Notes: a model not told the origin generated them from the letters alone. A stretch of DNA of 64,000 nucleotides from Moniliella sp. 'wahieum' (GCA_003971905.1 RSEE01000078.1:1-64000); one strand, 5' to 3'; shown: positions 8,960-47,511, counted from the stretch's first letter. Numbers and translations are program-made.

Positions 8960-11900
8960 GCTCAGTTGAACGTTGAACGTTGAACGGTCAGCGGTCAGCG
9001 CCAGCGCTCAGCCGCTCAGCGCGTCAACGCGTCAGGCTCCGCCGCTCAGGCTTCTGGCTTCTGGCCTCAAAGCTTCAGGCCCACCAGCCTCAGGCTCAGC
9101 CGTTCACTGGGTACGAAGCTTGAAGTATAGTATGCCAGTGGCAAGGTGACACATGTGACATGTGACCGGTGACCGATTGCAGTCACTAGTCACCGACCAG
9201 TCCGCACTGTCGATGGTTTATGATCGATGATATCACCCAGGGATCAAAGGAAGCTGAAAGTACGCGCTGAACGTTGGCTGAAGCGCTGAAGGTTGACGTT
9301 GAGGAGCTTGAAGCTTGAAGCTTGACGCTTGAGAGCTTGAGGGCTGGTGCTGCGCTTATGCGCTGATGCATGATGAACTTGACACAACTAGCTTTGAAAT
9401 GCGAAGTATCTAGTGAGTACCGAGTACCGAGTGAGTAGTACGATTGAGTAGTACTATTGAGTAGTACTAGCACGCTAGTGAGAATATTCCAACAGTAAAG
9501 CTGGTAACAAAAAGTAACCCAGTAACATGATGCATGAGTAACACATAACGCCTGAGGCCTGAGGTCTAAGATCTAAGCCCCAAGGGCCTAAAGAAAACCC
9601 AAGCCTGCAGACCAAGGAAAAACGGGTCATTAATTATTCAATTGTACTGACCGGTGACCGGCAACCGGTAACATGAACAGCCAACCGATATTCGGTAGCT
9701 GGTAACTGGCAACCAGTAACCGCGGATCGGGGATTAATTCGATTAATATTAGTCCTAAAGCTTAAAGCTTAAAGCCTAGCGAGCGCTTAAAGCTTACAAC
9801 TTAAAGTGAGGAAGATTGAATCGAGACACTTGTAGCATGCATGATGCATGACGCGTGACGGTAAACGTGAGACGCGTGACGCGTGACATGAGGCAGTGCC
9901 AAGCGCTGTTTAATGCGCTAATGCGCTAATGCGCGAAGCGCTAAGCGCTAATGCCCGAATGGTTGCGGCGTCTGTCTGATGTTGACGCCTGTTGGCGCTT
10001 GGAGCGACCCCTGGGAACGCGTGAGCCCATGCCCACGGACTAGATAGCGGGGGCCGGTAGATTGGCAGAACGACGAAGGTGGAGATCGGAGACCTGGAGG
10101 CCAGGCCAGGTGGGCTGCCGGTGTGTGTACCGAGTACGTATAGTGTCGCCGTTGGACATTGGACGTTGGATGTCGGGCTGTGGTGTAAACTCGGGTCCGG
10201 TGCCGGGGACGTGGCTGGCAGCCTCCGCAGCCTCCGCTGCTGATCAGGCGGGCAGGCCACGTGTCCATTGCATCATGTCATCAATCCTCGATCCTCGGCA
10301 TTCGACACTCCCCCAAAATTGGGCCGGGCTCAAGATGCCCCTTTGAGATCTGAGGATCTGAAGGCCAGACCAGACCAGACCAGACCAGCCAGGCCCCAGG
10401 GGCTGCCAAGAGCAGAGGCACAGCAGGAGTCATTTCCAGTTTGAAAAAATCCCCAAGCTGGATAGCGAGCGCCACACGCGGACAATTTTCAATCGGCTAT
10501 TTCACGCGTCACACGTCACGCGTCACGTCACACGTCATGCTCATTCATCGATCATCGTGAGCGCGTGAGCTTCATGTTCCAAGCGCCAAGCCAACTTCAG
10601 TTGTGTCCATGTTTGACATGATGCATGACACTATCACAGTGACACATTCTATGTGACTGGTGTCGCGTGATCTGGCACCCATAACATGCATGACATGGAC
10701 ACCGACGACGTCGTCCACGTTCAACTTCACCTGCTATCCGTTCGCTTCCGTTCTCTTTTCCCCATCGGCTGGCCCGATGCGGCCGCAGTCAGTCATCAGC
10801 GTATCAACGGCTCAAAACCTTGGATGTGCTTTGGGCCAGGGGTCCTGCGGCGCCCCCTGAGGCTGGCGCTTCCCACAAGTAGGTCCCGAGTACTTGTCAC
10901 CGGGTCACCTGGCCGGTCACCGGTCTCGGCGCCACTTCGGCACCCTTCCGAACGCAACATACCATACACTGAGCACTCCTATGTACTGACTTGTACACCG
11001 ATCGATGTTCCGAAGCGTCCGACAGGCCACCAGAGGGCAGAGCCGGGTAGGACATCGCATCATGCATCATGCATCATGAATTGAATGAATGAAGCTGAAA
11101 TCTCAGGTCTGAGATTGATAACTTCGATATAAAACTCGATAACTATGTGCATGTTGTCGATGAACTTAACCTGGGTGTGACGAGTGACTGGTCCCGTCCC
11201 GAAACGAGGGAGAGGGAATTATTAATTAGGCCTTAGGCCTTAGGGAACCCTGTTGTCCCTGCCGTGACGCGTGACGCGTGATCCCCGGGTCGGCAGACAT
11301 AGAATGGCTTATTGAATCGGAACTTAGCACAGCAGGGCACAGCTGGCACAGCTCCAATGTCGCTTGTTAATATGTTATGCATGTTAATCTTCAAGCTTCG
11401 TGACGCGCGTACGCGTGGCGCGTGGCCGAAGTGACAGGGATTAAATACCAACGCTTAGTCACTCGCTGGTCCCTGGCTGGTTTGCTGGCTCAGCGGATTG
11501 GTCGTTGAACGGGTTGAATTTGACACCTTCAGATGTTCACATGATCATCGGATCACCAGTCCGTCTCCGCCAGCGAGATGGCGTCACATGTCACATGTGA
11601 TTGCCCGCGTCACACGTCAGGCCTCAGGCGCGTCAGGCCGCGCATCAGGCCCACAGGCCTCTCAGCCCATCGTGGAATCGCAAGTCACAATGGCATGTAT
11701 TGTCAAGCTTCAAACTTCAATCTTCAAGCTTCAAGTGAAGCTTCAGTTCCGAAAAGTTCCGCAAGGTTCGGAAGCGAGCGGCCCGCGGAGGCGCGGAAGA
11801 GTTTCAGACAGACGCCTGTATGTATTAGCAATCGCTTCTCGTAATTCCACCTTCCGATTTCCAACCTTCAACGTGCGTGTCCCACGCGATCCCCCGAGCC

Positions 11901-14190
11901 CCCACCCCAGTTGCTGTTGGAAATTTACCGATAACCTATGAATGATTCATGCACGTAGGGACGTATAGAGTTCGGAGGTACGCTGCCACATGTGCGCCTG
12001 TTTTTGTTTGGCATCATGTGGATCATGCATCAAAGTGCAACAGGCCAGTCTGTTGGGGGACAGAGACCACAGCCCAGTGCACGCGTACCAGCGCGTGGCC
12101 GAAAGCGCTTGGAATATGGATCCCACGCCTCTTCTAACAACACATGGAACAAGGGAACATGCATTGGTACAGAGGACCAAGTTACTGATGTACTGTGACA
12201 CATGTGACATGTGGCATGTGATGTCCTGAACCTCGAAGCTTGACATGTTTGACAGCTCAGGCTGAGCGACGTTACTCGCTCATGCGTCACGCGTCACTAG
12301 TCACTAGTCACTGTGACCACGCCACGATATGACCATGTCACGTGATGAACGTGGCAGCTTCCCTGAGATCTGCGATGCGGCGCCCACGGAGGCATCGGAC
12401 TCCAGAAGATTGATTCTTCCTGAGGCCTGACGTTGAAGCAGGCTTCAATCTTCTGAGCGCTGAGCCTCAGTGCTGAAGAAGGGCTGACACTGTGCCGAAG
12501 CACTTAAATGCATAATGGGGTCTAGGCGTGGCACCTCGGGAAGCGGCACAAAAGGATCAGCCAGCCCCGGTGTTGCGCACACTGCGGGATCGGACGCGTG
12601 ATGCCGAATCGCACCCACTCAAGTATAACCCTTGCTAATGCCAATGCTTCAGTGGCCTTGGCCATCGAGGCCATCCAGGGTCGGTGGCCAAAGGGCTGTG
12701 CTGTTGCTTGTAACGAAGGCTACCAATTAGGCGCTTGGCCATTCCCACGCTGTTTGGGGTGCTGAGGCACTCACAGCATTCTCGCTGGACTAACTAACCC
12801 ACCTCTGTCACACGTATCACGCCTGTCGTACTATGATTTTGGTGAGACCCTCAGGAAGGAGAAGCGCAATCATAAAGGGTCATCGGCCGGTCATCGACTC
12901 ATCATGCATCAGGCCGGAGCCTCAGGACTCCAGGTCTCATCGATCATCATGCATCACTAGTCACTAGTCACTGCCGTGGGCCTTTCTCGGACGATCGCAG
13001 AGCATCGAGCATCGGAACCTCAGGCCAAGGTTATATTACCGGTTACCACGCCTGATACCACATGCCCCGCATATGCCGTTCCTCTTTGTTATGACGAGGG
13101 CTGTCGGCGAAGGCTCGGTGCGTATATTTACGCCACCTGGACGCCACCCATCAGCGTCATCACGGTCTGTTCTGCGTCGCATATCACATGTGACACACAT
13201 GTGAAATGGGTCACTAGTCACTGGTCGCTGTCATAGTCACGAGCTTCAAGCTGCAGGCTTCGCTGCCCCCCACATCTGTAGCCCCCCTCCTCCCCCCGAC
13301 CAGCCATCAGCCGCAAATCCCACACTCATCGGCGACTAATGACGTTAGTGACAGAGGCACCTGCACACTTCACATTTCACCGCAACACCGCGACCCCTCG
13401 GCCGAAAGCCAATTGTTAAACGTTAGTCATCGAAACGGGCATGCTGCATCGCAAGTGGAGCTGCTAGAGAAACTGTTACTGTTACGCACACGTGAACGCG
13501 CCACATGGGCACGCTACATGTGTTCCACACGATCGCCGGAGCGTCGGAGAATGAGTTCTTCATGAGGTTCCGAGGCAGACGGTCGGGTAGAATGGATCAT
13601 AATCCGGTAACCGGGGGTAACGGTAACCGTCGTTGACCGGTAACGTGGTTCTAACCTACCTGCTTCTGGTAGGAAGTACTCTGAGGTATCTGGAGGCCTT
13701 GAGCGCCTGCGCCCGCTATGATACACCAAGTGATGCTAGTGATGCTAGTGATGCATGTAACATGTAACGCCTGAAAGGCTCAAGGCCTGGTGCACCTGAT
13801 GAGGCGCTGTGCGCAGATATTCGAACCCGTCAGATCTCAGACTAGATTGAACACACAAGGGGCTGTTATTTATGCAACTGGCACCGGCTGATTGTAAATA
13901 GGTGTCGGGGAGTTGGTGCGCCAGGGTCGCCAGTTGGACATCGGGCTGGACCTGGACGGACATATGTTGCAGCCTGGCACAGCAGGGCACAGCTCGCATA
14001 CCAGCACGGTTAAGTAACCGGTGTTTAATAGTGAAACGCACGGTTACCAATATGGCTGATGTGTGCTTCTGGATCTTGTCTGTACTCAAAACATAGTACT
14101 CAGCACAGACCTAGAATTTAGAAAGGGCTGATGAAGACTCAGACTGAGAGTACTCAGACTGGGTTTACTAGTTACTGAGGATCAGTGCGT
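8960..14190. repeat. Long field of nnTNAnn heptamer arrays upstream of the bHLH gene
   Basis: Arrays at 8965-8999, 9145-9174, 9754-9774, 9840-9860, 9917-9931, 11224-11244, 12285-12312, 12452-12465, 12945-12972, 13729-13769 and many more. No credible CDS. Confidence 0.9.
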
Positions 14191-14873
14191 TCAGTCACAG
14201 GGACCTGCATGCCCCTCATCCATACCCCCCGTGCGGGCCGGGGGGGATGGCAAAAAAGTGGATTGGGCCTTAGGCCATAGGCCTTATTCTGAAGAGCGAG
14301 AGCTCACAAGCAATACATATGGCTCGTGATTTCCTCCCACGATCCATTCTGGGTTTTTCACCTTGCTCGTCGATCCATACGATACAGGGAACTTCTCCTG
14401 CTCTGAGTTTCCTCTTCTGATATCCTCATCTCTTCGCCTCCCATGACAGCGTCTCAGGTCTCAGCTCTCCAGCTTAGCGCTTATCCCAGCAGCTCAGGTT
14501 TCGGATTTCCCGCATCCAATCCGTAACGCTTTCTGCACCAGCTTTCAGGGTCAGCTCCAAAACCAGTTCCTTTTCCATTCCAACTGGGGAAGCGTTGTCC
14601 CACCCGGCTGCCTTTTTAAGTTATTTTGCTGGTTGTTCATCACGTGCAACGATTGAAATAACAGAGGAATAAGAGTTTGTAACTGACACCGTGGAGGCCA
14701 AACCATCGTTTAAAAGCACTCGTAGATCAACATGTACTCGAAGTCAGTGAGGAAACACGCCCCACAAGTGATTCAAACGTCATTTTCTCGTAGACATCCT
14801 TTTGAGCTGCCCGAGCCCGCATGTATATAGGACCATACGATGAAAATTTGGTCTGTGGAAGAACATATATAAA

Positions 14874-15975
14874 TACGAGAAGTGCTATCGGATGACATTC
14901 TTAGTGCTTTCGCAGTCTTCGCTTGCTTCTGTTGGAGGGTAGTGCTGGGGTTCCCTTGCGCGGCCCTCGGTGGATCGGTGACGCTCACTTAACCGGGCGG
15001 AAGAGTTCCGCTCGCAGGGCGCGCGCCCCCTGCTCGCTTGATCTCCCTTCTCTCTCTCCTGTCTCCTTCCCTTCAGACGTTACCTGAAGACTTATGGCCC
15101 ACCACTTTGCCTTCACGCCTTGTCTGAAGGCTGCTTTGCAGCTGAACCATTCTAGCAGCTTCGTCTCTGCTTCGCTCTGTCAACATCTATATGCCAGTGC
15201 GGTGGGGCTTAGACAGGAGGGGGTTACCAAAACAGGGTCAGCCAACAGTCAGCATCCTGGATCAGTGGGGATCCTTTATCCCACCTTCCATTCTCGTCCC
15301 TTCTCACCTTTCTTGTCCAACTCCTGACGGTTTCCGGCCAACTGATTGAGTAATGCAGGCAATCTCTCGTCTCCACTTAGCTGCCCCATCTTCATCATCC
15401 AACCTCGTCCTCCAGCTTTCCATCCGCCCAGTCACGCGAGCCTTCCTTCAGCGGCATCGATTCGCCCTACCACAGCGTATCGCGTGGGTTCCTTTCACAG
15501 CTACGTCCACAGCTGCCCCCGCCCAGCTTCAGCCCTGGCAGTCTTTGTCCTCCACAGCATCTACCCGTTCCTAAGCTCCGGAGGCTTCAGACACGTTACT
15601 ACCCCCAATCCGGCGCATACACAGCCTTTCCGAGCGTGCGGCAGCCTCGGCTTCACCCCCAAAGGCTTCTCCTCGGCTCGGATCCATCAAATAGCCCAAA
15701 CCCGAAACTACCGCAGTCGGCCATGGCGACGGCAGTGGCGGCACGACTCTCGGCGTGGATTGAAGGAACACTGTGCGCGAGTGTGGTCGTTGTGTGGCAA
15801 TGGGGGCACCGCCAGTGAGCACGGGTAGGGAGGGGCATTTTAAGGGAGTGGAGGGACGCGTCGACGCGACCCTGTCATATGCCCGATAGTTGGCGCAGCC
15901 CCCCCCCCGTCACGTGCAGGTCGGGGAGCAGTAGGGTTACACACTTTTTGGTGGGTCCTGCCATATGGTAAAAGA
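14874..15975 (-). repeat. Dispersed repeat, copy B
   Basis: Collinear direct copy of 2995-4385 without the 3850-4120 segment. Several of the differences are CpG transitions. Confidence 0.85.
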
Positions 15976-16029
15976 ATGGACGATGGATCGCAATGGTTGA
16001 TCAACAAGGCCCTACCGATGGCTTGAAGC

Positions 16030-16850
16030 CTAGAACTTCAACTGAAGCTTGAAGCTTGCACCTTGAAGAGGCTCTCTGTCAGGCGCGCTCTCCCTTTTTG
16101 GAAAAAGGACAAGTTAAAAGCTACCTCTGTTTTGTACCCTTGCATCACGTTCCACAGTCCGCCCCAATAGCCTTTTGTCGGTTCCCACAAACCGCAACTC
16201 CAGTCGATATGATAGACGGACTCCAGCGGCCTTTTTGGGCTGATGCCACCTTGTCAACTTCCACTATATATAAACCGAAGACAACGGGGGCGTCGTGTGG
16301 CTTGCTCCGCACGGTGGTGTGGCGAAGAAGGGGCCAATAAGTGGTAACTGGTAACGGTGTAAGTGACAAGTGTGGCACCTCAATGGCAAGTAGCAAGGGC
16401 CCTTGTTTAAGGGCTTTTGAAGTGAAGCTAGTGAAGCTTGAAGCTTGAAGCTTGAAGCTTGGAGCGTCCTGTTCAACGTATACATAACTGTCTGCGGTCT
16501 TGCAGACCACAGTGCTGTCATACATGTCTCAGTGCTTATAACAGAGCCTAACCTATAATCTAACCCACAAACACACGCCGTTGGAAATAAAATAGACCCT
16601 TTACCAAGACCCGTTGAAGGCGCACTGCTCTTCAAAACGTCGCACGCGCCCGGCCGGGGTCACCGAGACGAGTCTCATGACGTTCCAGGCGATAATAGCA
16701 ATGAATTTAACGTTGAACGTTGAACGTTGAACGTACTTGAACGTTCAGTTGAACGTTGATCGACTAGTTTGACTGGCGATTTCGGGAAAGACCTCTAGGA
16801 AGGCAGGCGACATGAGGAAGAGAAATGATCGATGATCGATGATATATGGA
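16030..16850. repeat. nnTNAnn heptamer arrays
   Basis: agTGAag-ct-agTGAag-(ctTGAag)x3 from 16421, (gtTGAac)x3 at about 16712, aaTGAtc-gaTGAtc-gaTGAta at about 16824. Confidence 0.85.
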
Positions 16851-19800
16851 CTCGGAGCCAGAGCTGGATCTGGGCACAGAGCAGCATCGATATGAGACAC
16901 AGCCTGTTCCCTGGGTCGGTGAGTCTAAGGGTAGTGCTCGAGAGGTAGATTAGTTATGGGCGGAGACTCTGATCTATAGGCGGGCAGAAATACGTTGACG
17001 GAGCATAATATGGAATGCGGGAGGGAGGCATATGGCCCATGGCCCTACACTATCTCAAGCACGCACACAGCCGCCTTCTTTTTGGAAATCAGATCGATCT
17101 CTTTTTCTGTTGTCAAATATGCCACCACACGAAGAAGATCTACCCACCTATGAGAAGATGAAGGGTGGATCTGAGAAATGAGGGTACTACGGGGTGGCGT
17201 TTCGTTGTTCAACGTTCGTGTAAGACCGGAGGAACCCAAGGGGTTGGGTGACCGGTGATGAACCTCTGGAAATTTAGAAAGCAATACAATGGCGGTGGTG
17301 GTGGTTAGGTCTAAGCCTTATGCCACACCTAATGGAGACAGGGGTTCAAACAAAGCCTGAGTATACACGAGGAGACTTCGTAGGTCAAATAAGGGGCAAA
17401 GGGTGATAAGGCGCCTTGGCCTCTGTACGGGACCGCGGTTCGCAACAGTTCGCCTGCTCAGCATTAGCTCTTGCTCAGACCTCATATTGAACGGAAGCCT
17501 GTTGAATCTGGTGCTGTGCTTTCACCGGAGTCTTTGGAACGGGGCCCCACCGTCGTGAGGCCCAGCTCTTCAAAAGGGGGCGGTTTTTGTAGAATCCGTT
17601 CGGTGGAAAGGTTGTGAGTGTTGGTATGGGTCAGGGCAAGCCTCCTCTTCGGGGACACGAACGATTAAACGTACACTCTCTCGTCCCACCACTCTTGGCA
17701 CAGACCGAAAAAACCACCAGGCCTCAAGCAGAGCACTCCCTAGTATATACATGCGTTCATGCAATTCATGTGTCTTTTGCAGAGCTTTAAAGCTTTATTA
17801 GACAAAGGTTTGCGCCTAAACGTTTCCCTCATTCACATATACTACAGAACACCTTCTTTCGAAAACGTTGACGGCCGGGCTACTCACTTCCACGGACCAC
17901 TCATGCCTCAGACTGAAGTCTCTTCCCTCTTTATCTGGCTCATCAAGTTCTGTTACTGTACCAACAGCACTCAACCTCTACACCACACTAATGTCACCGA
18001 ATGACTAAGCTCGCTCCAATCATTTCCAATTCCAATTCTGCATCCTGTGTCTCCCGCTCTTCCCTTCGCTCTTTTGCTTCTGTTATCTGCCTGATGCCTT
18101 CTGTTTTTTCCTCCCACGAACGATCAGTTGCCTTTCCCTCCGCCTCTGACAGGACCTTGTCTCCCTCATTAAGTCCCGACTGTTACATGGGGCGTTTCAT
18201 GTAGATAGTGCCGAAGCCAAAACCAACTCCATTTTTGGGAGGTACTATCATATCACGAGATGCATGTGTTGGAGATGAGCGGATGAGGGCTGTTGAGCTG
18301 TTGACGGTTATCAACACTACATAGTCGTGATTTTCATGGATGGAATACTATGGAACATCTGTCTCCTCAGATCCGCAGCCCTAGCCCCTCGCGCCAAGAG
18401 TATAGTTGCACCCCACATCGTACCAGCCGCAAAGATGATCTCCTTATAACGCAGTCCACATAGCTCCGCCACTAATACTGTTCCGACTATCGTCCCTCGC
18501 CCTACTATCTTCTCGGAATGTCTCTTTCCCGCTCAATGAGTTTTTGTTCCAGGCATCTCTGTGTAGGCGAATAACAATGACGCCCCGAGCCGCTGATGGC
18601 CACACAAGAAGCACAATAGGGCACAACTGTGATCAATGTTTACCTCTGAGCCGTTAACCAGACTCCCGTCGTCCGTGGCGATAGGTTCGACTAGCCAGGT
18701 TCGATACAATCACTTGCTGTGTCTTGATTTACTATCCTCTGTTACTCACCCATTATCTTTCAGAGTTTTGGGCAGATTGCTATCTCTCTCTCTCTTAGAC
18801 ACACGGCGTTACACCCAACTGTGACTATTGCTTATTGACCGTTCTATACCCTTACACCAGCTCAACAGAAACAATGATTTCGCCTCGTTTTGCGGGGGCA
18901 TTACCAGGTCTTGCCGCTGCTAACGTTCACCCTCGACGCTCTTGTCTTGCGTCGGCCGAGTAGACAAAAATCAATTTCTCCAAGCTCTCTGTTGACATTA
19001 TCCTCGCATGCGTCGTCGGCTTTTGATTTGACAGGATGCTTTGAACACCCTATCAGTCAACTTCTCCTGCTTATTGTGAAGATAATGAGTGACTATGTCA
19101 GCAGCTCTCTTGTTTTGGTTACGGATATGAACCCACAGACACGACACGTGTGGGTGTGGGAGCAGCTTCACGGTATGGACAGGAATGGGTTGAAGTCGAA
19201 TTTGAGATGGATACGTGGCCCCGTGAGGGCATTACCACTGCGGGGTTATGACTTATTATTAGTATACCACACACCGCCGGGCACAAGATGTGGTTTATAA
19301 CGCATGACCACATGTGGGCGAGAATATTAGGTCAACTATGCTTTTCCCCTTCACATGGTGCTGCTCCAAGGGCTGCAGTGTTCGAAAGATCATTTGATCG
19401 CAGATATCTGAATGGACACCATTCTTCCCCATTAGTAATGTTCCTCCGTGATGGGAGAACTGTTGACGTGAGATTAAAGGGTAAATCGATGTGTTTGGAT
19501 CTAGACGGTTGCACCAAGCGTTAAAAGCCAATGATCGACCCAACTCTGGCTCTAATCCATCACCTTCTCCTCATCATTCTGCCCGTCCGGCTCCCTAGGC
19601 CACAACATTAGTAGTAGAGGGCAGTAGTGTTCCACAGGGTACGGATACTCCACCGTAATTACATTTCTTTGGTGAGATTTGAGCCGAGTTGAAGTGGGAA
19701 TTCGGTTCATTTTCAGAAAACCCCAACAGATGTGAATCCACTGCAGATAGGCAAGGGAGACGAGGGGAGATAAGAGGAGACTGTCACGGGCTGCGACGGA

Positions 19801-20145
19801 CTCGAGATGGTCCAACCCAAGCTAAGGCCCCCTCTCCGCACATGCCCAGTAGAGCGTGCACCGCAGGCCAACCAAGTGCGATGATGGTTGGCTAAATTAA
19901 GTACCGCGTGGCCCGAAGGGTCATGCGCCGTGCGACAATAGTCGCCCCCCCCCAAGGTCCAAGTCGGCAGGCCTAAATAAGGCCACCGAGCTTCCAGTGC
20001 CGTGGCGGCATCTGCCGTCCCGTCCCCGTTTCCGTTTCCTTTCTCGTCGTCGCGCGGGTGGCGACCAACCCGCTTTGACATGTCTTCCTTTCTACACCCC
20101 CTCTTGTATCCGTTTCCCTTTTGATCCTGCCTGTACCCCTGGTGG

Positions 20146-20643
20146 ATGGGGATCTTTACCCCCACCTTCCATTCTCGTCAATTCTCGTCCCCATTCTCGT
20201 CATCCTTTCGTCCTTTCCCGCCTATCCTGTCCGACTCCTGCCCGTTTTCCAGCCAATTGATCCAGTACAGGCAGCTCCTCTTGTTAGCGTCCGACATCTC
20301 CTCCGACCTCGTCCTCCAGCCCTTCGTCAGTCCAGTCGCGCGAGCCCTCCTCTGGCCGCATCGATTTCCAGTCTCAGTTGAGGCAGTGTTTGTCCGCCGC
20401 TGTCTCCTCCTCCCGTCCCTAAGTCCCGGAGGCTTTAGACATGTTACTACGGCCCAAGCCGGTGCAGACGCAGCCTTGTCACACGTGCAGCCGCCCCACC
20501 AAAGGCCTCTCCTCGTCCCAGCTCCGCTCGGATACACCAACCAGCCCAATCCCGAAACTACCATGAGTCGACCTACCGTCGCCTAAGGGATTGTGCCCCA
20601 AAAACCCCCAGGCGGGCCCCCTGGCGGCGCCCGCCCGTGACAG
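20146..20643 (-). repeat. Dispersed repeat, copy C (partial, more diverged)
   Basis: Shares 'ccaccttccattctcgtc', 'acctcgtcctccagc', 'ccagtcgcgcgagcc', 'ccggaggct.tagaca.gttacta', 'cgaaactacc' and 'cccctggc.g.gcccgcc.g.gacag' with copies A and/or B. Confidence 0.75.
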
Positions 20644-20939
20644 AGACAAGGGGAGAAAAGGTGAGAGGATGGTGGGGTCGGCTGGGGTCAGCTGGGGTCG
20701 GCCATCTGCCGCCGCCCGTAACAGTGGGCTTGCTACATGAGAGAGCGTCTTCGCATCCATTGTATCCTGGCGAGGGTTGCTTCGGATACCAACTCGGCGT
20801 TGTGGTTTGCTGCTTCTTGAGGGCTGCGTGCATGAGTTTGAATATGGTACCCACTCAGTAACTCCGCCCCGCCCCATTTAACATTGATCATTTACCCCAC
20901 ACCAAACACACTGGCGCCATGGGCTGGGTGTGCGCGTAT

Positions 20940-21370
20940 ATGAGCGCATGGTGCATGATGCATGATGCATGATGCATGATGATGGTGCATGACCAGCGTG
21001 GGCCTTTCTCCCCACACACCCCACCCTTGGCCGCCCCAACAGACAACCGGGTGTGGCCGACGCCATTCCAAGACGCGGACGGCGGGCAAGGCGAGCAGCC
21101 TGCGTGTGCTGGCTGGTCTGTGGCCAGGATGGCGCATCACCCACCACTGGTCACCGGCACCAGGCGACCATCGGTGGGGTGAGCTGCATCAGCCGTGTGG
21201 GCCCACAAAAAACCTCTGTGTTGGTCTGTGCACTGCAGCGGGGGGCCAGCGCGCTGGTGAGCCTCCTCAGGCGCTCAGGCCTCACCTCGGCCTCAACGCC
21301 GAGCCTTATTCGCGCCGCGTCTTGCTGCCATCCCTGCGTTGGCGGGGGGTAACCGGTAACCGGTAACCCC
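20940..21370. repeat. nnTNAnn heptamer arrays in the NMO upstream region
   Basis: (caTGAtg)x4 at 20954-20981 and (ggTAAcc)x3 at 21348-21368. Confidence 0.9.
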
Positions 21371-21546
21371 GGCGCCCACTGGCTCTCACTGTAGTCAAGT
21401 AGCTGTTCAACCCCCACCGGCCTCCGGCTGCTCCGTCCCGACTCCACTGCGTCGGCCGGGTGAAAGTCGACCAACGCCAAGCTAAAAGACAGAGTGTATA
21501 CAGCACCACAACGGTTTTCTCTTCCATCAACCCTGCCCCCACCACC

Positions 21547-22677
21547 ATGGCATCTCCTCAACGCATCCGCACTCCCCTCACCGACCTGTTCGGCATCAAG
21601 CACCCATCCTTCTGGCCGTACGTCTCACCTGGTTACTGGTTCCCCCGCGTGCGCGCCACCCGTTAACCTTTCATCTGCTCATAGGGCATGAACGTCGCCT
21701 CAGGCCCCGACTTGGCGGCCGCCGTCACCAATGCCGGGGGGCTCGGCGTGATTGGCGGGCTGGGGTACACACCCAAGATGCTGCGCGAGCAGATTGGGTA
21801 CATCAAGGAAGGTCTTGTGGACAAGAAGGCGCCGTTTGGAGTGGACCTGCTCCTGCCCCAAGTGGGCGGTGATGCTCGTAAGACCAATTACGACTACACT
21901 GATGGCCGCCTCATGGAGTTGGCCGATGTGATTGTGGAAGAAGGCGCGAAGCTGTTTGTGTCGGCAGTCGGGGTGCCTCCACAAGAACTAGTAGAGCGTC
22001 TGCACAAGGCCGGCGTCGTGGTGGCCAATGTGATTGGCCACCCTAAGCATGCCGTCAAGGCTGCCAGGCTGGCGTGGACATTATCATTGTCCAGGGCGGC
22101 GGAGGGCGGTGGCCACACGGGCGATGTGCCGAGCGTGTGTCCGTGCTGTCCACGTTTGTGGACCTGGTTACCCAGAAGGGTGGAAGTCTCCGTTGACGGC
22201 AAGCCGGTGATTGTGGGTTGCAGCAGGTGGGGTGTGGAACGGACGGTCGCTTGCCGCCTCGCTGGCGTATGCCGCCGGGTTTGGGTTGGCACCCGTTTTG
22301 TTGCTTCGGAGGAAAGCGGGGCGCCACGCGGACACAAGCTTGCGGTTCTCTCAGCTACTCACGAAAGCGACGTCCGAACGATTATTATGACCGGACGTCC
22401 GCTCCGCTTAAACGAACCAAGTACATTGATGACTGGGAATCCCGGCCAGAGAGATCAAGCGGTTGACTAGTCAGGGGATCATTCCTGTTCTCGAAGACCT
22501 CAAAGACGATCCTGACGGATCCAAGGAAGAGGCAGTCCGCGAACGTTACTTGATGGGCAAAGTGGCAGCCTGCATCGATGACATTTTACCCGCCAAGGTG
22601 ATTATCGACCAGTTTGTCGAAGGGCAGAGCGCGCGATCCTGGCTAGCAAGGCGGCGCTTGTTTCGTCCAAACTATGA
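21547..22677 (+). CDS. Nitronate monooxygenase / 2-nitropropane dioxygenase family flavoprotein
   Basis: MASPQRIRTPLTDLFGIKHP, intron 21618-21684, then GMNVASGPDLAAAVTNAGGLGVIGG...EGGGHTG...VWVGTRFVASEE...YLMGKVAA. Frameshifted; the corrected C-terminus is ...VSSKL*. Confidence 0.92.
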
Positions 22678-22844
22678 TGGTTTCAACACATCCAGTCCAC
22701 CTTTCTCTTCCCGTTTCTGTGGTACTTGTAAACATTGAAGGAATCGAAGCGCTTTGATTTGGTTCAGTGAGGTTTGGATGACAAGCAACGGCTCTCTCCT
22801 ATAGCCGAGTGCAAAGGTGGTGGGGGTGATCGATAATGAGCCAG

Positions 22845-23290
22845 TCAGTCGTGTACAGTCAGTCCCAGAGGGTACAATGCAAGACAGGAAACGTGAACAA
22901 GCGCGAAATAGCGGAGTAGTGGAGAGAGAATGAAGCAAGATGGGGCGTGCCTCGAAATGTTGTGGTGCGAGGAGTGTGGCAGCCTCTCTTGGCTATGAGG
23001 AGATGCCACCTGCCCCCCCCCAAGGCAGAATAAGCTAATGCCCATGCCGGCTCGTGCCCCATCAGCATACTATTGCGCGTTGCCGAGGGAGTTTGACCAC
23101 CAAGCCATCCAGAGCCTTGGTAACGTTCACCTGATATCCGAGCTGTGACGTGTCCGTCAGACCAAACGCCGAATCCAGCATACCATTCTCATTGTCCCCC
23201 CCCGGTTCCTCCAGTTGGTCAAACACTTCCGGTTCGAGGATCACATGGCACGTACGCTAGCCATGGCCAGCAACTTACTGGTGCTCATTA
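22845..23290 (-). pseudogene. Possible degenerate small gene with weak Cks1-like motifs
   Basis: HVILEPE...MGIS..LGGG.WH...PH order loosely follows Cks (YRHVILP...LGI.QS.GW.HY...PH). It needs stops and frameshifts and is weak. Confidence 0.2.
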
Positions 23291-23469
23291 ATCATTGGCC
23301 AAGTGAGGTAGCGTGGAACTGTACGGATGGCGGCGAGAGGGTAGTGGGAATGAGGGAGAAGAGAGAAGAAGAAGAGCAGCAAAAGGAAACCTTTTGCAGA
23401 GCGAGACGAAGCAGATGAATGATCGAGGTGACCGATGATCGATGATCATGCACCGACCGATCACCGATC

Positions 23470-33529: not shown

Positions 33530-36500
33530 CTCGGCGTGAGCTCAGCTCTCAGTGACCCCTGACGCGCACGCTCACGCCTCAGCACCTCAGCCTGACGCCC
33601 AGACTCCCCCCGGTAAGCTCACCGACCGAGCGGCTCAGCGCCAGCGGGACGGGCCAGGCGCTGGCCTGTGCTGACAGGCGCCGGCTGCCTCCCGTCCAGT
33701 ACAGGGCGAACTTGAATTTTTGAGCTGAGCACGCAGAGTCCTGCCCTACTAGCACTACCCGTGGCGGCCGACGACCCAGATCGTCTTGACAGAACTAACT
33801 TATCAAGCTCGAGCTTGAACAGGGCCTGAAGGCGGAGTACAATTGGGTCCTGGGCCTGCCAGAGCGCTAAAGACTGTGAAGGGTGTTGTTCAGTGTTCAG
33901 TGTTCAGTGTTCAGCCACGCTTCACATGGAGGGCCTCAGTCAGCGCGTGGTGCCGCCTGCATACTAATAGTGGCACCGATGTCTCAAACACCCGGTTTTC
34001 TTAGGTGCATTCCATCCGATATTCCTTCCTAGAGGGCAGGAATATCCTCTAACGTTGAACGTTGAACGCCCAACGACGCGTCACGCGCAGGGGGGTTGGA
34101 ATCTCAGAAAGTTTCTCACAGGCCTCGGCCTCATCGATCATCGAGCACCCGCACTGGTGCACAGTACGCGTACAGACAGGTGCTGCGGCTGTACGCAAGC
34201 GGCTTTGAGACGCAAGAGGTTCATTAATCGATTAATCATGTTACGTTCAACGTCACGTTCTGTTGAATGGAAGCTCAGCCTACGCGTTCAGCGAGCGCCG
34301 CTCAGGCTCGGCGTTCAGTCTCAGATCCCAGTCTTACCAGTTACTAGTTATCGGTTACCGGTTACCGGTTACCGTTACGCGTTACGCGTTACCGGCCTCA
34401 CCAAGTGACTAGTCACAGTGACTGGTGGCGCGTGACGCGACGGAGGGGCCCGAGCATGTGTCATCGTAATGTGATCCATGTGACACGGGACGGTCAATGC
34501 CCTGCCGCCCAGCGCCCATGTAACACGTAAATCAATATAAATAGCCTCCCAGTTCGATTTCAGTCGTCCTCTCAGATCTCAGTGCTGGCCTGTATTGGGT
34601 TCAGCCGCTCAGGCGCTTATTAGGCCTACTCAGTACTCAGTTGAGTACTCAGTGAGTACTCGATAGTCCTCTTCAGTGTTCCGAACGCAAAAAGGGCCAT
34701 GCTGTACGGCGTGTGGACCACATGCTGCAGGGACCTGATGTGACCGGATCCCGATGCCAAGCGAGACAGCAATCAAGAACTGGGTCAATAGACGATAGGG
34801 ATTGATTGCTGGTGAGCGATAGTAGAGAATAGCGGAGAGGAGGAGGAGGAGGGTAGAAGAGAGAAGACTAAGAGCTACGACTGCCGGGACCTCTAGAAGG
34901 AGGCCAGTCGGCCAGCCACACTTCCGCCCGAGCGGAACTAGCGGAGCTAGCCGCTGGATGGAAGTGGCTGGGAGCGCCAGAGTCCGGCTATGCTTTTGGC
35001 ACACGGCACTAGTGTCCCAACAGACCCCGTCTAACATCGCCCATTCTGCATCAGTCCAAATACAAACCGTCGATCCAGCTATTGCAACACGACATCGAGC
35101 TACGCACTAGTCACTACTGTCATCGAGTCAGCTAGTCCTAGTCACTAGTCACAATCATCTCGCAATAGGGCTGAGGACAACATCCATAACTCGGTACTTA
35201 CAAGTTATTAGGTCCCCAAATCAGTAACCCGTACACCGAGATCTGAACCCAGACATGCGTACTACGCCTCTAGTTATGATATTCCGACAATCAACAATTG
35301 AAGCCACATCAACCGGCGGCCATCCAGCATGCCAGGCCAGTACCAGGCGCTGCCCAACCATACCCAGGGCATGTGGCAGGTGACATGTGACATGTGAAGC
35401 ATGTGAAGCTTGAACAAGCCGTCGGAGAGACAGGTATCCGGTAGGAGCGCGCACACCTGAGATGATCCAGATGACTTTTTATTATAATAGAGTGTGTATA
35501 CCCGCAGGCGCTCGCGCTCAAGCTTCAAGCTTCAAGCTTCAAGCTCAAGCTTCAGTGTTCTCAAGCTCTTCAAGAGCTTCAAGCCTCTCTCCGCACGTTA
35601 ATATTTAATGTTAAACGTTATCGATCTGTTATGTCATTACGCGTTACGCAAGACACATCTCGCGTGTGGCATATAATAGTGTGCTTGGACGGTGAAATTG
35701 GTTGAAAGGGCAATCGACGACCCCGCGCTCATGCGACGCTCAGCGCTGATGCTCAACTGAGCGCGAGCATGCCATCCATGGCAATGTGACACAGAGAAAG
35801 CCAAGGCGGAGATGAGATCGATGAGACCGAAAAACAACGTAGTGGGCATTGAAGTTCTTTTTTTCTGGCAGCAACAAGAGTTGGTTTGGTACTGAGTACT
35901 GATTAATGATTAATGATTAATGATTCGGAGTACTCAGACACATACTGAACGTACTGAGTAGTACTGACGCGAACGTTAACCGGTACGTTAACGTCGTTAA
36001 CCGCGTATCGCTGACGTATCATATATCATCGATGATCTCGATCATTAATCATTCCCTCATTGACATTCCGTACCATAGCGTAACGGCGACCGGTAAGCGA
36101 CGGTAACCGGTAACCCCCCCCCGTATATAGTAGGTCACTAGGTCACTATACAAATTGGTAGAATATGACTTAGGAAGCACTCGCGATCCTATATGGATCA
36201 GCTGCAAAGCAGCCTTTAGATCTTCAAACAAGGCGTGAAGGCAAAGGCTGACTTAGCGCTAACGTCTGCAAGCGTCAAGCTTCAAGGTATGAGATTTGAC
36301 ATGGCGTTTTTGCCCGTGGAATAAACAAACCAGAATGTTTCGCCTCTCCACAAACAATCGCGTGCTGAGAAAGAAAGAAGATCGACGGTGGCCGGTGGTG
36401 TAGGATGTGTGACATGTGATTGATCTCATCGATCATCATCGATCTCTCCTCATGCTATTGAGACCATCGGCCCTGACCGGGGTGGGTGACCGGTGACCGG

Positions 36501-36965
36501 TGACCGGTGACCCCTCCATTCCACACCGGGCTCAGCTGCCGCCCTCTCTCCTGTTGCTGCGGTGATGGGTTGGATGACTCGTTGACGCTCCTTTTGTTTG
36601 TTGGGTAGAGAAGCGGCTTGCTGGGCTTAGAGGGCACTTGCTGTTCACACTCTCATTCTCCCAGATCTCACTGTTGACCGTTGAACGTTGACCGGTGACC
36701 CTGAATCAGGCCTCCTTCAATATAAATCAGCCATAAATAGCTCTAGGCCACATCGGCCTTGTAACAGGTAATAACCTTACCGGTATTGACCCGAGATGAA
36801 ATCTGAGATCTGAGATGGGAGATCTCAATCGTTCCCCGGACCCAATCCACTTCTCGGGGTACCCGCAGTAGTACGCAGTGGCGCGTGCCGTATCCCTGGA
36901 TCCATTATGCATCTGCAGATCCACACATGCCCATCCCCATCCCCATCGCAGGTCACTAGTCACTG
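33530..36965. repeat. Dense field of nnTNAnn heptamer arrays
   Basis: Arrays at 33888-33915, 34332-34393, 35379-35415, 35516-35543, 35596-35609, 35891-35925, 36133-36147, 36485-36512, 36673-36700 and 36802-36815. Confidence 0.92.
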
Positions 36966-37267
36966 CGCGCTTCTAAACCAAAAAGGGAGAAAGCCTGACA
37001 CCTACCATTTGCTTCCCCCCACGCTGCCAGTCGAACTGCGGTCGCGGTGGATGCGCCGTGGAGGCGGCGTGCGAGACAGGCCGCGCTACACTACGAAGGG
37101 TGCGGTCCCGTCCGCCCCTGGATCGCGAGACAAAAAGAGCGAAGTGGACATTGGTCCAACGGGGAACAAAGGGCGGTATGACGGGAACGAGGGCGAAAAA
37201 GACAAGGATCAAAGGACCATGAACTGATGGAGGCGGAAAAAAGAGAGCAACAGTCACAGCGAGATAA

Positions 37268-37351
37268 GATGGGAGGGGATGGGAGGGGAGGGGGGAGATG
37301 GGATGGGAGGGGAGGAGATGGGATGGGAGGGGAGGAGATGGGATGGGATGG
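37268..37351 (+). repeat. GGGAT/GGGAG purine-rich repeat with G-quadruplex potential
   Basis: More than 8 GGG tracts with short loops; the 20-bp unit gggaggggaggagatgggat occurs twice. Confidence 0.8.
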
Positions 37352-37402
37352 CAGAGCAAAATCCCACCGTCAAGGGGCGGAGTCAGCGTGTGGCCTAGTA
37401 AG

Positions 37403-41507: not shown

Positions 41508-42085
41508 GCAACACCACACCCTGCCGTGTGGCGCAAGCGCAAGTTGAAAGTGGCAAAAAGCCAGCTACATGTGCCATCCAACGCCATCGACGTCATCGAT
41601 CAGACTGGGATCCTGGCCACCCACATCTTGGCGGCCGATGTGACCTGGCTGTGACAGCGGTTGCTTCTGCCTCGCCTCTTGCCACATCTGCTTCCCCACC
41701 TCCTCCGCCCACCAGCACGCCAATGCGCATGGCGCATCGTGGCGAGCGCCCTCCGCTCTGCCATACAGTGGGGCAAACGCCAGATGGGTGTGCGAGGTGC
41801 AACACATGCATGCGTGGTTACTACTAGCTACACTTACTGGTTATTAGGGTGGGGCCACCTTTTGCTCATTAACAAAGCAAATCCTCCCCACAATTTTAGA
41901 CGCAGGGGCCATCTGTCCTTTTTCACTTCGACTGGTCCTATGTATATACCACCCCACCCTAGACCCCTCGCCACCCGTCCCAGCATCAGCTTTGTTGCTG
42001 CCCACCGCTACTCAGCAGCAGCACTTGGCACCTGCACTGCCACCACCACCACCTCTGCCTCTGCCTCTACCCCCCCTCCCTCTCC

Positions 42086-44316
42086 ATGCTATTCTTCGAC
42101 TCCAAAAACACGGTCGACCCCAGCCTCATCGCCCAATCCGATGCCCAGGCCCAAATCGGGTGAGTTGATAGAGCTGTGCTCTCCCCTGCCCCAGAAGCTG
42201 ACCGTACACAACTAACCTCGCCGTGCCCCCCTCCCACTCCCACTCACACTTCTACACACAGGCGAACCCAAGACCACCATTCAGCGTCCCCCTCCCCGAT
42301 TCGGAGGAGCCTGGCTACAGTGCCACGTATGTCAATGCTGTCTGCCCCAAGTTGGAGGTGGAGGAGACCATGTACGAGCTGAGCGAGGCCGCCCTGACCA
42401 AGTTTGCCGATCGCCCTTGCCTCGGCTGGCGTCCGTGGGACTGGGAAAAGGGCGAGTTTGAAGCGCGCTACCACTGGCTGACGTACCGCGAAGTGGCCGA
42501 GATGCGTACCGCGCTTGGCAGTGGGCTGGTGCAACTGTTGGAAGATGGGACGTTGGATGCGAGTCGCACGCTCTGCACGGCCTATTGGGCCGCCAACCGC
42601 GCCGAGTTCCAACAGCTGCAACAGGCCTGCAGCGCTTACTCGTTTCGCATCGTCGCCCTCTACGACTCGGTCGACATGGACGCTGGCATTTACATTCTCA
42701 ACCATGCCGATGCGCAGGTCCTAGTCACCACGCACAAGCATGCGCGCCTGGTGATTGACCACAAGGACCAGCTGCCGCACCTCAAGTTACTGGTGATTAT
42801 CGATGCTCAAACCTCGCACCACGCCGTTGCCCACCCCACCCCCCCACCCGGCCAGGACGCAGAGACGATGCGCCACGTATGGGAGACCAAGGTGGTCCCG
42901 GTGATGCGGATTGATGAGTTGATGGAGATGGGTCGGATGGAGCCCAAGGCGCACCGACCGCCCAAGCCGGATGATGTGGCGCAATTGGTCTACACGAGTG
43001 GCACGACGGGCAACCCCAAAGCAGTGATGATCACCCAGCGCACCAAAGCGTTTGCCGTCCGGTCGGTGCCGACGTTGATTCGGCTGACTTTTCATGTATG
43101 CTAGGCTACCTCCCGGTCGCGCACTCGTTTGCGTGCATGTTGGAAGATGCGGGCCTGGGTACGATTGGCGGTCGAGTCGGGTATCTGTGTGGCGACACGC
43201 GTCGGATCCTAGAGGATCTGCAACTGCTGCAACCGGACGTGTTTCCTACCGTTCCACGTGTGCTCAATCGCATTGCCGCCAAGATCCAGTCGACGATGGA
43301 GGAAGAGAGCCTTAAAGGCCGGCTGCTCCAACGCGCCGTAACAAGCAAATTGGCCGCTCTTGATGCCACCGGATCCGTTCACTCGTTGATGTGGGACACA
43401 CTCGTCTTTAATCGCATTCGCGCCCTGATGGGCGGTAAAGTGAAGCTGGTGATTAGTGGTTCGGCGCCCTGCTCGCCGCCCATCCTCCGGCTCTTGCGCG
43501 TTGCGCTCGCTTGCCCGTTGTGGAAGGGTATGGCATGACGGAAAACTATGCGATTGGCACAGTGTCGGTGTATACGGACAAGTCGACGGGGACGGTGGGA
43601 CCGCCGCATGCGGGGTGCAGCTGCGACTGAAAGACATGCCCGAGTTGGGCTATCGCGTGTCCGACCCCAACCCCCGAGGCGAACTGATGATTCGAGGTCA
43701 GTGCGTGTTTCAAGGCTACCTCAACGCACCAGAGCAAACGGCCGAGGTGCTCGATGCCAACGGATGGCTTTCTTCTGGGGACATTGCCGAGGTAGACTCG
43801 CGCGGCCGGTTTGCCATTATCGATCGCGCCAAGGCGCTCACCAAGCTCAGCCAGGGAGAATACGTGTCGCCCGAGAAGCTGGAAACGGCGTATACGTTTG
43901 AGCTGCCGATTTTTTCTCACTTGATCGTATACGGTAACAGTTTCCAACACTTTCTCGTTGCTGTTGGCTCGGTCGAACGAGCGGCATTTGTCGACTTTGT
44001 TCGTTCGGTCCGCAAGCCAGTGGAGGAGACGTGCGCGATGAAGCCGCAACCGGCACGGATGGTCCGGAGCAAGAAGATTTGACGTGCCAGCGGCCTGCTC
44101 GGACCCCGAAGTGATCAAGGCGGTATCAAGGCGCTCGGCACGCGGGGACGCAAGGCCGGCCTGAAGGGTTGAGATGATCAAGAACCTGCGGCTCTACCCA
44201 ACCCCCTTTTCGGACGAGATCATCACACCTTCAAGGTCAAACGCAACGGGTTTGCTCGCATGTACAAATCCGACTTGGACCAGATGTATGCCGAAGGACC
44301 GGTGGCGACCAAGTAG
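42086..44316 (+). CDS. Long-chain fatty acyl-CoA synthetase
   Basis: YTSGTTGNPKAVM, GYLPVAHSF, FPTVPRVLNRI, ISGSAP, RGELMIRG, WLSSGDIAE, IIDRAKALTKLSQGEYVSPEKLE. Intron at about 42160-42261. Confidence 0.93.
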
Positions 44317-45029
44317 TAGTGGTGGGCCTTGCCCGTTCCCTCCTCCCCTCGGCGTTGATGTACCTCCATTCCCCTCCCGCGACCAGCTCGCCCGTTCATC
44401 CTCGTCTTGTCTTTGGCCGCCTCCTTCCCCTCCAGCAAGTCGCGATGCGTGTGTCGGTGGGAGTGTTCTGTTTGGTACCAATTCTCTGCTTGCTTGCTTG
44501 GAACCATTGCTGCTGTGCAACCTGCGCTGGCTGCGCCCTTCCCCTGTGTTTGTCCAACCCAAACAACACCCACGTCCCCAATGTTGATACGCGATTTGGT
44601 TGATACAACTGAATTGCCCTCCTGTCCTGCTTGTAGGTGAAGAGCCCCGCCCCCAGTCGGCTATCACATGACAGCCCCGGGCGGAATGGGGCGGCGGAAC
44701 GGACGCGCACACTAGCGCTCTGCGCTCCCAGCCGCTCGCGCCCGATGCACGCGCGATAGGGTTGGGCCGGAGCAGAGCTGTGGTGCTAGGGTTGCAGACG
44801 TGGCCCCCGGCACTGCCCACGCGGGGGCTGCGCTGCAGGCCGCCCGGCAGGCCGCACGCGGGCAGTGTGCGCGATGCCCGCCTGGCGCAGCGCTGTCGCT
44901 TTGAACGATCCCCGTTCCCTCGTCGCCGGGGCGCGCATCGCGGGCAACACGGCGCCCCCTGCCCCTCCTCCTCCACCGCCACCTCCTCTTCCTCCTCGCC
45001 CCCCCCCCTCCTCCCCTTATCCCGCAGAC

Positions 45030-46105
<1,076 letters not shown>

Positions 46106-47484
46106 CCCTTTCCTTACTTGTTCTGTGCCCCCTTTCTTCCGTATGCTTGCCTTTTTTCTGCCCTCGTAGGTGGGGGTTGGCTGGCAAGCCGCTGGGCTGC
46201 GGCTTGTGGGCTGGCTGGGGCCCCCCTGGCCCAGCCTTTAGTATGTATCGTGAAAACGAGAAGGCAATGCACACGATGCAGTATCCAAACAGGTCAGATG
46301 CGTAGAGCTACGTTCACCTTTCTTCAGTTGCATCTAGCGTGAGCAAGGAGAGCAGCAGGGTCCTTGTCCCGACGTAGGTCTTGAGTCTGCACTGTCGGAT
46401 GCAGTCGTTGCGTGGACCACACCGAGTCGTAACTTGGTATCCAAGTTCATCTAGTAGGTAAACGCGTGATGGATGTGCGTGATTGCCTGCAGTGGCATGC
46501 GAACTCTTGTCCAACTCGGTTCGTCTCCGTTGTTCCCTGGTGTACGACTGTTGGACCATTTTTCCTAAGCGCCGAGAGGTTCGAGTCTCCCCTATGGGTT
46601 GCGACAGGCCAGGCTGCCTGAAGCACGACCATTAGTGTGCTTCCCAGAGAGTGTGCTGTGTCCACGGCGCGGATGGGGCAGGGATGCTCCGAGCATATAT
46701 ATCGTGAGATGCCTCGTCGGTGCCTCGCTTCCAAGCACTGTGCCATTATATGCTGAAACCATGATGAGGACTGTATGCCCGCTGGTACGCTGGCCAACTC
46801 GAGCCTCTCACGTTTGAGAACTGACTCTGGAGGGACCAGGGTACCTGGACATCATCGATGTACACATGGAGAGCAACAGCAATCCAAAACTGTTATGAAC
46901 GACTGCAACACAAACAGCTACTATAGTTTGGCTGTGATAGCAGTAGGGGTGGCCACCTGTGTGGCAACCAATTGGTCGATGGCTTGTATACATAGCATCA
47001 AGTTGCCGTTGACGATCAGACGAATTTGTCCATGCAACTTGATGGCTGTGTGCCGACGTTTCTCACTGGTTGGTTGGTAGACCTGCCGGGGCATATCGTC
47101 GCCTTGCCCAAATCGCACTTCGTCGCCACATATGCACTTCAGCCGACTGAACAACGGTGATGCAGATGGATGAGCCAGCTTGCTTCACAGGCATCTGTGA
47201 CTTTTTGTCCCCAGAATCCCTGGAGAGGATCTCTCAAGGGTACAGCGTCTGCTTTCGGTTGTATGAATGGGAGCGACACACAAATAGGCCCTATATACTA
47301 ACTGCTCACTCGTGGCGTTTGCTTGACCACCGCCTCTCTTTGCTTGTGCGTCTGCCGCTGTCCCCCACGATGTAGAAAAGTGAGAGCTCCCACCCCCACC
47401 CTTTCGGCCGTTCTTCTTTCGGAACCATATATCAGTCGCCAGCTCCACCAGGAGCCGAGAGAGGATGGGCGGTGGGTGGTGCAT

Positions 47485-47511
47485 GATGACATGTGACGTG
47501 ACCGCGTGACC
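47485..47511. repeat. nnTNAnn arrays in the SSK2 upstream region
   Basis: gaTGAca-tgTGAcg and cgTGAcc-g-cgTGAcc. Confidence 0.7.

Follow-up and report, generated by a model that had tools for sequence, protein, structure and literature searches.

The stretch of DNA analysed here – 64,000 nucleotides (nt) from Moniliella sp. 'wahieum' (GCA_003971905.1 RSEE01000078.1:1-64000), referred to below as the window – holds many short tandem repeats of one form: a TNA trinucleotide, a palindrome of four bases and the same TNA again, at a period of seven. These repeats are best read as scars of DNA repair, and not as products of slippage or as functional motifs, and we refer to them as scars throughout. 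The chemistry they display is familiar; their target, their uniformity, their density and the repeats that result are not.

The window is eukaryotic nuclear DNA with a GC content of 58% and with open reading frames (ORFs) that are split. Pfam matches identify two HSP70 genes, a protein kinase, cytosolic ribosomal protein L11/uL5, an AMP-binding enzyme, a metallophosphatase, a nitronate monooxygenase, an HLH factor and a C2H2 zinc finger. The scan covered all 211 stop-to-stop ORFs of at least 120 amino acids across the whole window, together with 70 shorter ORFs (75–119 amino acids) from 1–20.8 kb and 33.4–37.3 kb only. The L11 ORF is 78–84% identical to named proteins of Ustilaginomycotina (Thecaphora, Violaceomyces, Ceraceosorus, Tilletia and Malassezia). 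The nitronate monooxygenase ORF is at most 68% identical to any match, its best named matches standing at 60–61% (Tilletiaria, Acaromyces and Exobasidium). These matches place the source among smut-like basidiomycetes, with no close sequenced relative in the collections. The scars are intergenic, numbering over 100 within roughly 25 kb of non-coding sequence, and fall into clusters:

2091..4829: scar cluster, 18 links (2–6 kb bins)
8965..14483: densest scar cluster, 57 links (8–16 kb bins); T[CG]A 293 against 163 expected from base composition
16043..17258: scar cluster, 13 links, all of TGA polarity
20952..23445: scar clusters flanking the nitronate monooxygenase ORF (21685–22467) on both sides
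34051..36962: scar cluster, 42 links; T[CG]A 165 against 96 expected

T[CG]A occurs at 1.6–1.8 times the expectation from base composition in the denser clusters (2.0–5.0, 8.9–14.6 and 33.8–37.0 kb), at 1.3–1.6 times in the smaller ones (16.0–17.9, 20.9–21.7 and 22.5–23.5 kb), and at 0.9–1.1 times in the other regions tested. The extra T[CG]A sites suggest that inflation would account for about 16% of the region at 8.9–14.6 kb.

Period 7 and the TNA core

Exact tandem arrays were counted period by period and compared with the mean of 20 Markov-1 simulations. At period 7 there are 68 arrays where the simulations give 3.45; the corresponding figures are 103 against 53.5 at period 5, 65 against 13.8 at period 6, 11 against 0.9 at period 8 and 10 against 0.25 at period 9. 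An earlier note on this DNA had proposed a unit of seven bases, and in the window period 7 does dominate. A single base plus a 6-bp palindrome is reached by rotation in 49 of the 68 period-7 arrays, and 48 of these 49 take the form A-xy-y'x'-T (primes marking complements), that is, TNA followed by a 4-bp palindrome.

The same form emerges when the trinucleotide is made the object of the search. TNA followed after four bases by the same TNA occurs 194 times against 32 expected, and with a palindrome as the four intervening bases 128 times against 2.2, while none of the other 15 xNy trinucleotide classes exceeds 14 palindromic cases. The palindrome itself is free to vary: 15 of the 16 possible 4-bp palindromes occur in scars. 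A search that made no assumption about bases – a four-base unit U4, the reverse complement of its last three bases, and U4 again – returned 188 cases on both strands. Because the paired base is A in 180 of these 188, and is preceded by T in 116 of the 131 isolated cases, TNA must be regarded as a real requirement. TNATNA, the product predicted if both overhangs were lost, is found 60 times against 32 expected. Intact palindromes outnumber half-decayed ones by 128 to 37, where shuffles give 2.1 and 12.4; most scars are therefore young.

All eight repeat strings quoted in the earlier note were found where it had placed them. These, with neighbouring arrays and three chains of more than two TNAs, are as follows:

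8985..9000: period-7 array ggTCAgc, 2.3 copies, a non-palindromic pure duplication immediately after the palindromic array GTTGAAC (3.1 copies, 8965–8986)
9156..9172: two-block chain tg-TGA CATG TGA CCGG TGA-cc, each palindrome copied from the flank on its own side
9911..9934: period-8 array TAATGCGC, three copies, TAA + t + palindrome GCGC
12287..12310: two-block chain cg-TCA CGCG TCA CTAG TCA CTAG TCA-ct
13729..13754: period-9 array AGTGATGCT, 2.9 copies, TGA + tg + palindrome CTAG; the insert ct is the reverse complement of the unit's first two bases
16421..16461: period-9 pair AGTGAAGCT (two copies, 16421–16438) merging into the period-7 array TGAAGCT (4.3 copies, 16432–16461), with a common core
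33887..33914: period-7 array of unit gtTCAgt, 4.0 copies, one of only three non-palindromic arrays of pure 7-bp duplication
35380..35409: period-7 array GTGACAT (2.6 copies, 35380–35397) adjoining the period-9 pair CATGTGAAG (2.1 copies, 35391–35409)
35893..35923: longest chain, ac-TGA GTAC TGA TTAA TGA TTAA TGA TTAA TGA-tt
36131..36148: period-8 array, TCA + palindrome CTAG + g
47497..47511: period-8 repeat cgTGAcc-g-cgTGAcc, TGA + c + palindrome CGCG, isolated and away from the dense clusters

Templating from the flanks and the form of the joint

A critical issue is where the palindrome comes from. In 99 distinct period-7 runs containing TNA-palindrome-TNA the match run is five long in 27, six in 15 and seven in nine; the commonest structure is TNAxy-y'x'-TNAxy, or its mirror on the opposite strand, in which a single flank has been copied. 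At the 63 isolated sites whose two TNAs share the same N, the palindrome matches both flanks in 11, the left only in 19, the right only in 22 and neither in 11: at least one flank dinucleotide has been copied in 52 of 63, where chance predicts 13% (P=3e-35). Sites at which the two TNAs differ match a flank in only 4 of 11 and 1 of 6. The palindrome of a scar is new sequence templated by the flank rather than a fragment of a transposon terminus.

The longer chains obey the same logic. There are 26 multi-unit chains, of which 18 contain one palindrome, eight contain two blocks and none contains three. In seven of the eight two-block chains each block is the complement-copy of the flank on its own side (P=1e-16), and this ordering allows every chain to be reduced to one ancestral heptamer, pq-TNA-xy. 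The empty sites inferred in this way hold T[C/G]A in 84% of cases, with a weak preference for G at −2 and C at +2 (40%). The 18 homogeneous chains are compatible either with repeated events or with slippage.

We enumerated, in the 64-kb window and counting each array once, every TNA-centred heptamer followed by k nt and then by the same heptamer. Direct joining (k=0) accounts for 37 events, 31 of them with a self-complementary heptamer. A single intervening base complements the end next to it in 10 of 11 events (binomial P=0.0017), and two intervening bases do so in 9 of 12 (P=3.6e-5); k=3 yielded no event and k=4 three, none of them complementary. Control heptamers lacking a central TNA carry complementary inserts at about chance (6 of 16 for k=1, 2 of 21 for k=2), a difference from TNA-centred heptamers with Fisher P=0.007 and P=0.0002, respectively. 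The earlier claim that inserts are complementary to their flanks is thus borne out within the window, far above chance, and the signal is specific to TNA-centred heptamers. Directly joined heptamers that are not palindromic make up only three arrays (2981, 8986 and 33888), two of which had been the earlier examples of the +7 class. Eight links fit only a reading of two intact heptamers with no palindrome between them; once the four that are alternative frames of a TTAA-type array are set aside, these three arrays remain.

The +7, +8 and +9 junctions can be described by one overhang rule, in which the left end, ...pqTNA, bears xyy'x', the right end, TNAxy..., bears q'p'pq, and the numbers of bases retained from the two palindromes are a and b, so that the spacer follows from the flanks alone. 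Against a null in which flanks were permuted among sites, the rule fits 126 of the 194 spacer-4 pairs (+7, by far the most frequent class; null mean 18, maximum 28), 12 of the 75 with spacer 5 (+8; null 0.8) and 10 of the 65 with spacer 6 (+9; null 0.37); at spacer 3 it fits 10 of 51 (null 3.1), and at spacers 7 and 8 (+10 and +11) none. One whole 4-bp palindrome is compatible with 116 of the 126 fitting +7 events, 11 of the 12 at +8 and all 10 at +9: beside it 0, 1 or 2 nt of the other end survive, and two nt are added in all three classes. For the +8 class the 1+4 and heptamer+1 readings are mostly identical strings, two events fitting only the former and one only the latter.

Two consequences follow. 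Since nearly all events are compatible with one complete palindrome plus 0–2 nt, the variation is more likely to come from how far the second end is trimmed than from where a hairpin is opened; variable hairpin opening, from which the earlier note had derived its series of junctions, is the less likely source, the palindrome being 2 nt throughout. Of that graded series the flank-complementary inserts stand, but the picture of 0, 1 or 2 nt lying between whole heptamers does not, as the main +7 product is TNAxy-y'x'-TNAxy. The second consequence concerns the unit itself: the +9 class holds both xy and pq, and the duplicated unit is therefore 7 bp. The same class, in carrying copies of both dinucleotides far more often than permuted flanks allow, upholds the proposal that the break lies 2 bp outside TNA on both sides.

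Other derivations of the joint were considered and set aside. A 5-bp duplication of TNAxy with P nucleotides is unable to yield the +9 class; a hAT-style nick 2 nt inside the flank predicts y'x' in place of xy, which is not seen; and neither 6+2 nor 7+1 can serve as the sole reading of the +8 class, the two being inseparable. A further candidate is a footprint like that of Tc1/mariner or PIF/Harbinger elements, comprising a 3-bp duplication of TNA and 2 nt of each inverted terminus (TNA-xy-y'x'-TNA). Here the arithmetic is attractive, three and four making seven with a palindromic filler, and IS5/Harbinger-type elements prefer TNA or TWA targets. Such a filler should nonetheless consist of constant element ends, whereas the local flank is matched at most isolated sites and 15 different palindromes occur; moreover, the +9 class holds both flank dinucleotides. 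Element ends as filler to a 3-bp duplication are excluded by the flank matches, and the chance that footprints of this kind explain the scars is next to negligible.

Metagenome DNA offers a comparison for both density and templating. A scan for (TGAWGCW)x3TGA gave 121 stretches, 80 with flanks. Scar density is 1.0 clusters per kb in the window against 0.086 in 593 kb of metagenome DNA selected for holding such an array, and none of the stretches shows a density like that of the window. By hand count, 12 of 33 non-seed sites in this DNA match a flank, an imperfect control for the flank rule. In one stretch of 624 nt (L091), positions 168–300 hold TCA spaced by the 4-mers TCGA, TCTA, CTAG, TCAA and TTAA, and may represent a weaker case of a like array in another organism.

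Another possibility is that the repeats are replication errors, with template switching at quasi-palindromes making the first copy and slippage expanding it. Real DNA is in general rich in short tandem duplications, as the metagenome matches illustrate, and the homogeneous arrays of three to five units – 18 of the 26 multi-unit chains – could be expanded by slippage from two copies. Yet replication errors predict neither the strict T-N-A requirement nor the fixed distance of 2 nt between palindrome centre and TNA, with its return to the same N after exactly two or three copied bases; nor do they predict two-block chains ordered by their flanks, and periods 5, 6, 8 and 9 are much less enriched than period 7. 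We consider this explanation very unlikely. An origin as a simple slippage microsatellite was rejected outright: slippage needs no new bases at birth, and the modal structure is a 5-nt repeat plus two new complementary bases. The earlier note had argued that simple slippage does not account for the inserts, and rightly so, as slippage is unable to make the palindromes.

Agent and mechanism

What can be read directly is a 7-bp duplication centred on TNA, two added bases that complement one copy's end, and clean joining. The reading towards which we lean, and which we hold to be probable, is that the scars were left by the excision of a cut-and-paste element that forms hairpins and duplicates 7 bp of its target, similar to hAT7 or Kyakuja. 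Two features expected of such footprints are present: TNA is always doubled, and the +8 and +9 classes contain the whole of pqTNAxy twice (11 and 12 events); and the palindromes at the joints are templated by their flanks, both at single sites and in two-block chains.

Under this model the element would integrate by a 7-bp staggered cut centred on TNA, with T[C/G]A preferred, and pqTNAxy would be duplicated. Excision would then close the flanking ends into hairpins, in the manner of hAT, Mutator, Transib and RAG reactions. A host nuclease would open each hairpin 2 nt from its tip, giving self-complementary 3' overhangs of 4 nt on a duplex that ends exactly at TNA; nucleases of the Artemis family favour a +2 opening. 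End joining would retain one overhang whole and strip the other, either fully or to 1–2 nt. The resulting scar would be a second, now symmetric, target, so that repeated visits, perhaps together with slippage, could grow heptamer arrays and inflate intergenic DNA. That hAT, Transib, MULE and RAG reactions leave hairpins on flanking DNA, and that host nucleases open them, is described in the relevant passages of a published account (PMC5499845). The best candidates for the agent are basidiomycete elements with 7-bp target duplications (hAT7 and Kyakuja), which were not themselves seen in the window.

Several observations weigh against an excised element. All scar statistics rest on one 64-kb window. 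No transposase or reverse-transcriptase Pfam match was obtained from the 211 ORFs of at least 120 amino acids and the 70 shorter ones. No occupied site was found in the window, in the sense of an inverted-repeat element bracketed by a 7-bp nnTNAnn duplication; this search called for inverted ends of at least 8 bp (perfect) or at least 11 bp (one mismatch) within 6–8 kb, and is blind to elements that have no inverted ends, such as Kyakuja. Sixty-eight of the 194 +7 pairs lie outside the overhang rule, where about 30 are expected by chance; the remaining non-fitting pairs may be decayed scars. Classical hAT targets are 8 bp with the consensus nTnnnnAn, which differs from nnTNAnn. Comparison of the two main copies of a direct repeat of about 1.3 kb (2900–4900 against 14780–16500) revealed several indels, none of TNA type, and no scar in either copy; the pair thus gives no before-and-after view of an event, and scarring is therefore strongly regional. 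There are also domains of strand polarity in the middle base (35 runs against 46.4 expected, P=0.011), which a strand-blind element does not predict: TGA/TAA is found in 15 of 16 chains at 8967–10344, TCA/TTA in 19 of 24 at 10502–14474 and TGA in all six at 16043–17249. These domains may follow local G/C skew. Finally, repair after plant transposon excision is far less uniform than in the window: in data reported for rice, perfect excisions numbered 8 of 94, and the rule was deletion or filler (PMC4423477).

The 1.3-kb repeat just mentioned (3000–4390 and 14880–15990, about 90% identity) has a third, partial copy at 20299–20366. TNA arrays begin right where homology stops in its first copy.

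The polarity domains also enter into a quite different explanation, namely that the arrays are functional elements maintained by selection: binding sites, terminators, or barriers of stop codons in all frames. TGA or TAA at a period of seven does place stops in all three frames, and the clusters adjoin genes. But selection for function leaves unexplained the copying of whichever dinucleotide happens to flank the site, the use of nearly every possible palindrome and the near equality of the two polarities overall (47 against 44 chains), and Rfam returned no match. We regard it as highly improbable.

A more searching alternative dispenses with mobility. A non-mobile nuclease of the host – a domesticated transposase, for example – might make breaks at TNA with a 7-nt stagger in certain intergenic regions, the ends being filled in, then capped or snapped back, and rejoined. 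This would suit a window in which no element or transposase was seen, the unusual uniformity of the outcome, and the strongly regional scars with their polarity domains. Set against it is the fact that duplication of pqTNAxy followed by palindromes of hairpin type equals integration plus excision in one known pathway, and we know of no nuclease that does both. A stretch of 64 kb is, besides, too short for a resident low-copy element to be expected. On balance a host nuclease seems unlikely. Of a similar nature, and quite unlikely in our estimation, is the bolder suggestion that the host has retained a RAG-like cut-and-hairpin system that repeatedly breaks TNA in selected intergenic regions and leaves palindromic joints of the V(D)J kind in the germ line. 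Were that the case, heptamer repeats would be made, and promoters and spacers lengthened, in a directed manner.

If the scars are indeed excision footprints, then the window is a dense natural record of a single DNA-break pathway, in which over 100 events are packed into roughly 25 kb. It would show a break 2 bp outside TNA, hairpins opened 2 nt from the tip, one overhang kept and almost no nibbling; it would also reveal a route by which microsatellites of odd period (7) can arise and grow from unique sequence, and a way in which intergenic DNA is inflated. A further prediction would be that a little-sampled lineage of basidiomycetes harbours an element, or a nuclease, that has yet to be described and whose 7-bp target is centred on TNA. 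And since the scars can be collapsed to ancestral heptamers, they could be used as a clock, and also to mark transposon activity in the past.

Certain other features of the window deserve mention. The HSP70 gene at 57776–59822 (+ strand) has a frame shift inside a (TG)4 run at about 58812–58818, too tight for an intron, with Pfam profile positions 1–302 and 299–598 falling on overlapping ORFs; the change of frame is either an assembly indel or the mark of a pseudogene. The second HSP70 gene (55540–57059, minus strand) and the AMP-binding gene (42202–43535) are also split between frames. A unit of 179 nt with TGT...ACA ends occurs twice in inverted orientation (425–603 and 17992–18187, with blocks matching at 84–100%), and the pair looks like two solo long terminal repeats or the ends of a large element spanning 17 kb. 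Purine-rich, low-complexity arrays of GGAGG and GATGG at 8749–8880 and 37267–37351 (periods 16/32 and 5/20) are unrelated to the TNA scars.

Known systems compared

The footprints of hAT elements (Ac/Ds, Tam3 and Hermes) are alike in that the target-site duplication is kept and short P-nucleotide palindromes are centred on the end of the flank, which is explained by hairpins that form on the flanking DNA and are opened off the tip. The published passages on Ac/Ds in Candida albicans describe such palindromes with short arms, and two products that predominate among 128 excisions (PMC5873905); hAT excision products are described there and elsewhere as host-specific and sometimes strongly biased (PMC5873905, PMC5499845). 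The window departs from hAT in its nnTNAnn target, in a palindrome arm that is always 2 nt, in more than 100 scars stacking into arrays, and in a unit of 7 bp where the canonical hAT duplication is 8 bp. Duplications of 7 bp are nonetheless recorded in basidiomycetes, for hAT7 of rust fungi (Pucciniales) and for Kyakuja of Laccaria, in the relevant sections of one survey (PMC12730594). As treated in those sections, hAT7 belongs to Pucciniales and not to smut-like fungi, and its likeness to the window lies in the 7-bp duplication. Kyakuja, a KDZ element of Agaricomycotina, likewise moves by cut and paste in basidiomycetes and duplicates 7 bp of its target (PMC12730594); its ends are described as CA..TG without inverted repeats, and its known likeness to the scars lies in the length of the duplication.

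The coding joints of V(D)J recombination, made by RAG and Artemis, together with Transib, provide a parallel in the chemistry of the ends: hairpins opened a couple of nucleotides off the tip, self-complementary overhangs and P nucleotides. Unlike those joints, the scars have no N-nucleotide additions and almost no nibbling, and their flanks, viewed only as a logo of 6 nt on either side, contain no recombination signal sequences; the Transib duplication, moreover, is 5 bp against 7 bp in the window.

We found no account in the literature, array strings included, of TNA-centred heptamer scars or of footprints stacked into arrays. The nearest idea among the publications found is the argument of a preprint that ribosomal DNA spacers are filled with transposon remnants (10.1101/2023.02.20.529178). 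In outward form the scars recall the heptamer repeats of bacteria (cyanobacterial, and the TAACTGA type of Beggiatoa), which have the same period of seven, contain stop codons and are intergenic (PMC4679880). As far as the portion of that work devoted to them goes, the bacterial repeats have one fixed unit per genome or family, are prokaryotic and have no flank-templated palindromes. In the window, by contrast, which comes from a eukaryote, each site has its own unit, and that unit derives from the flanks of the site itself.

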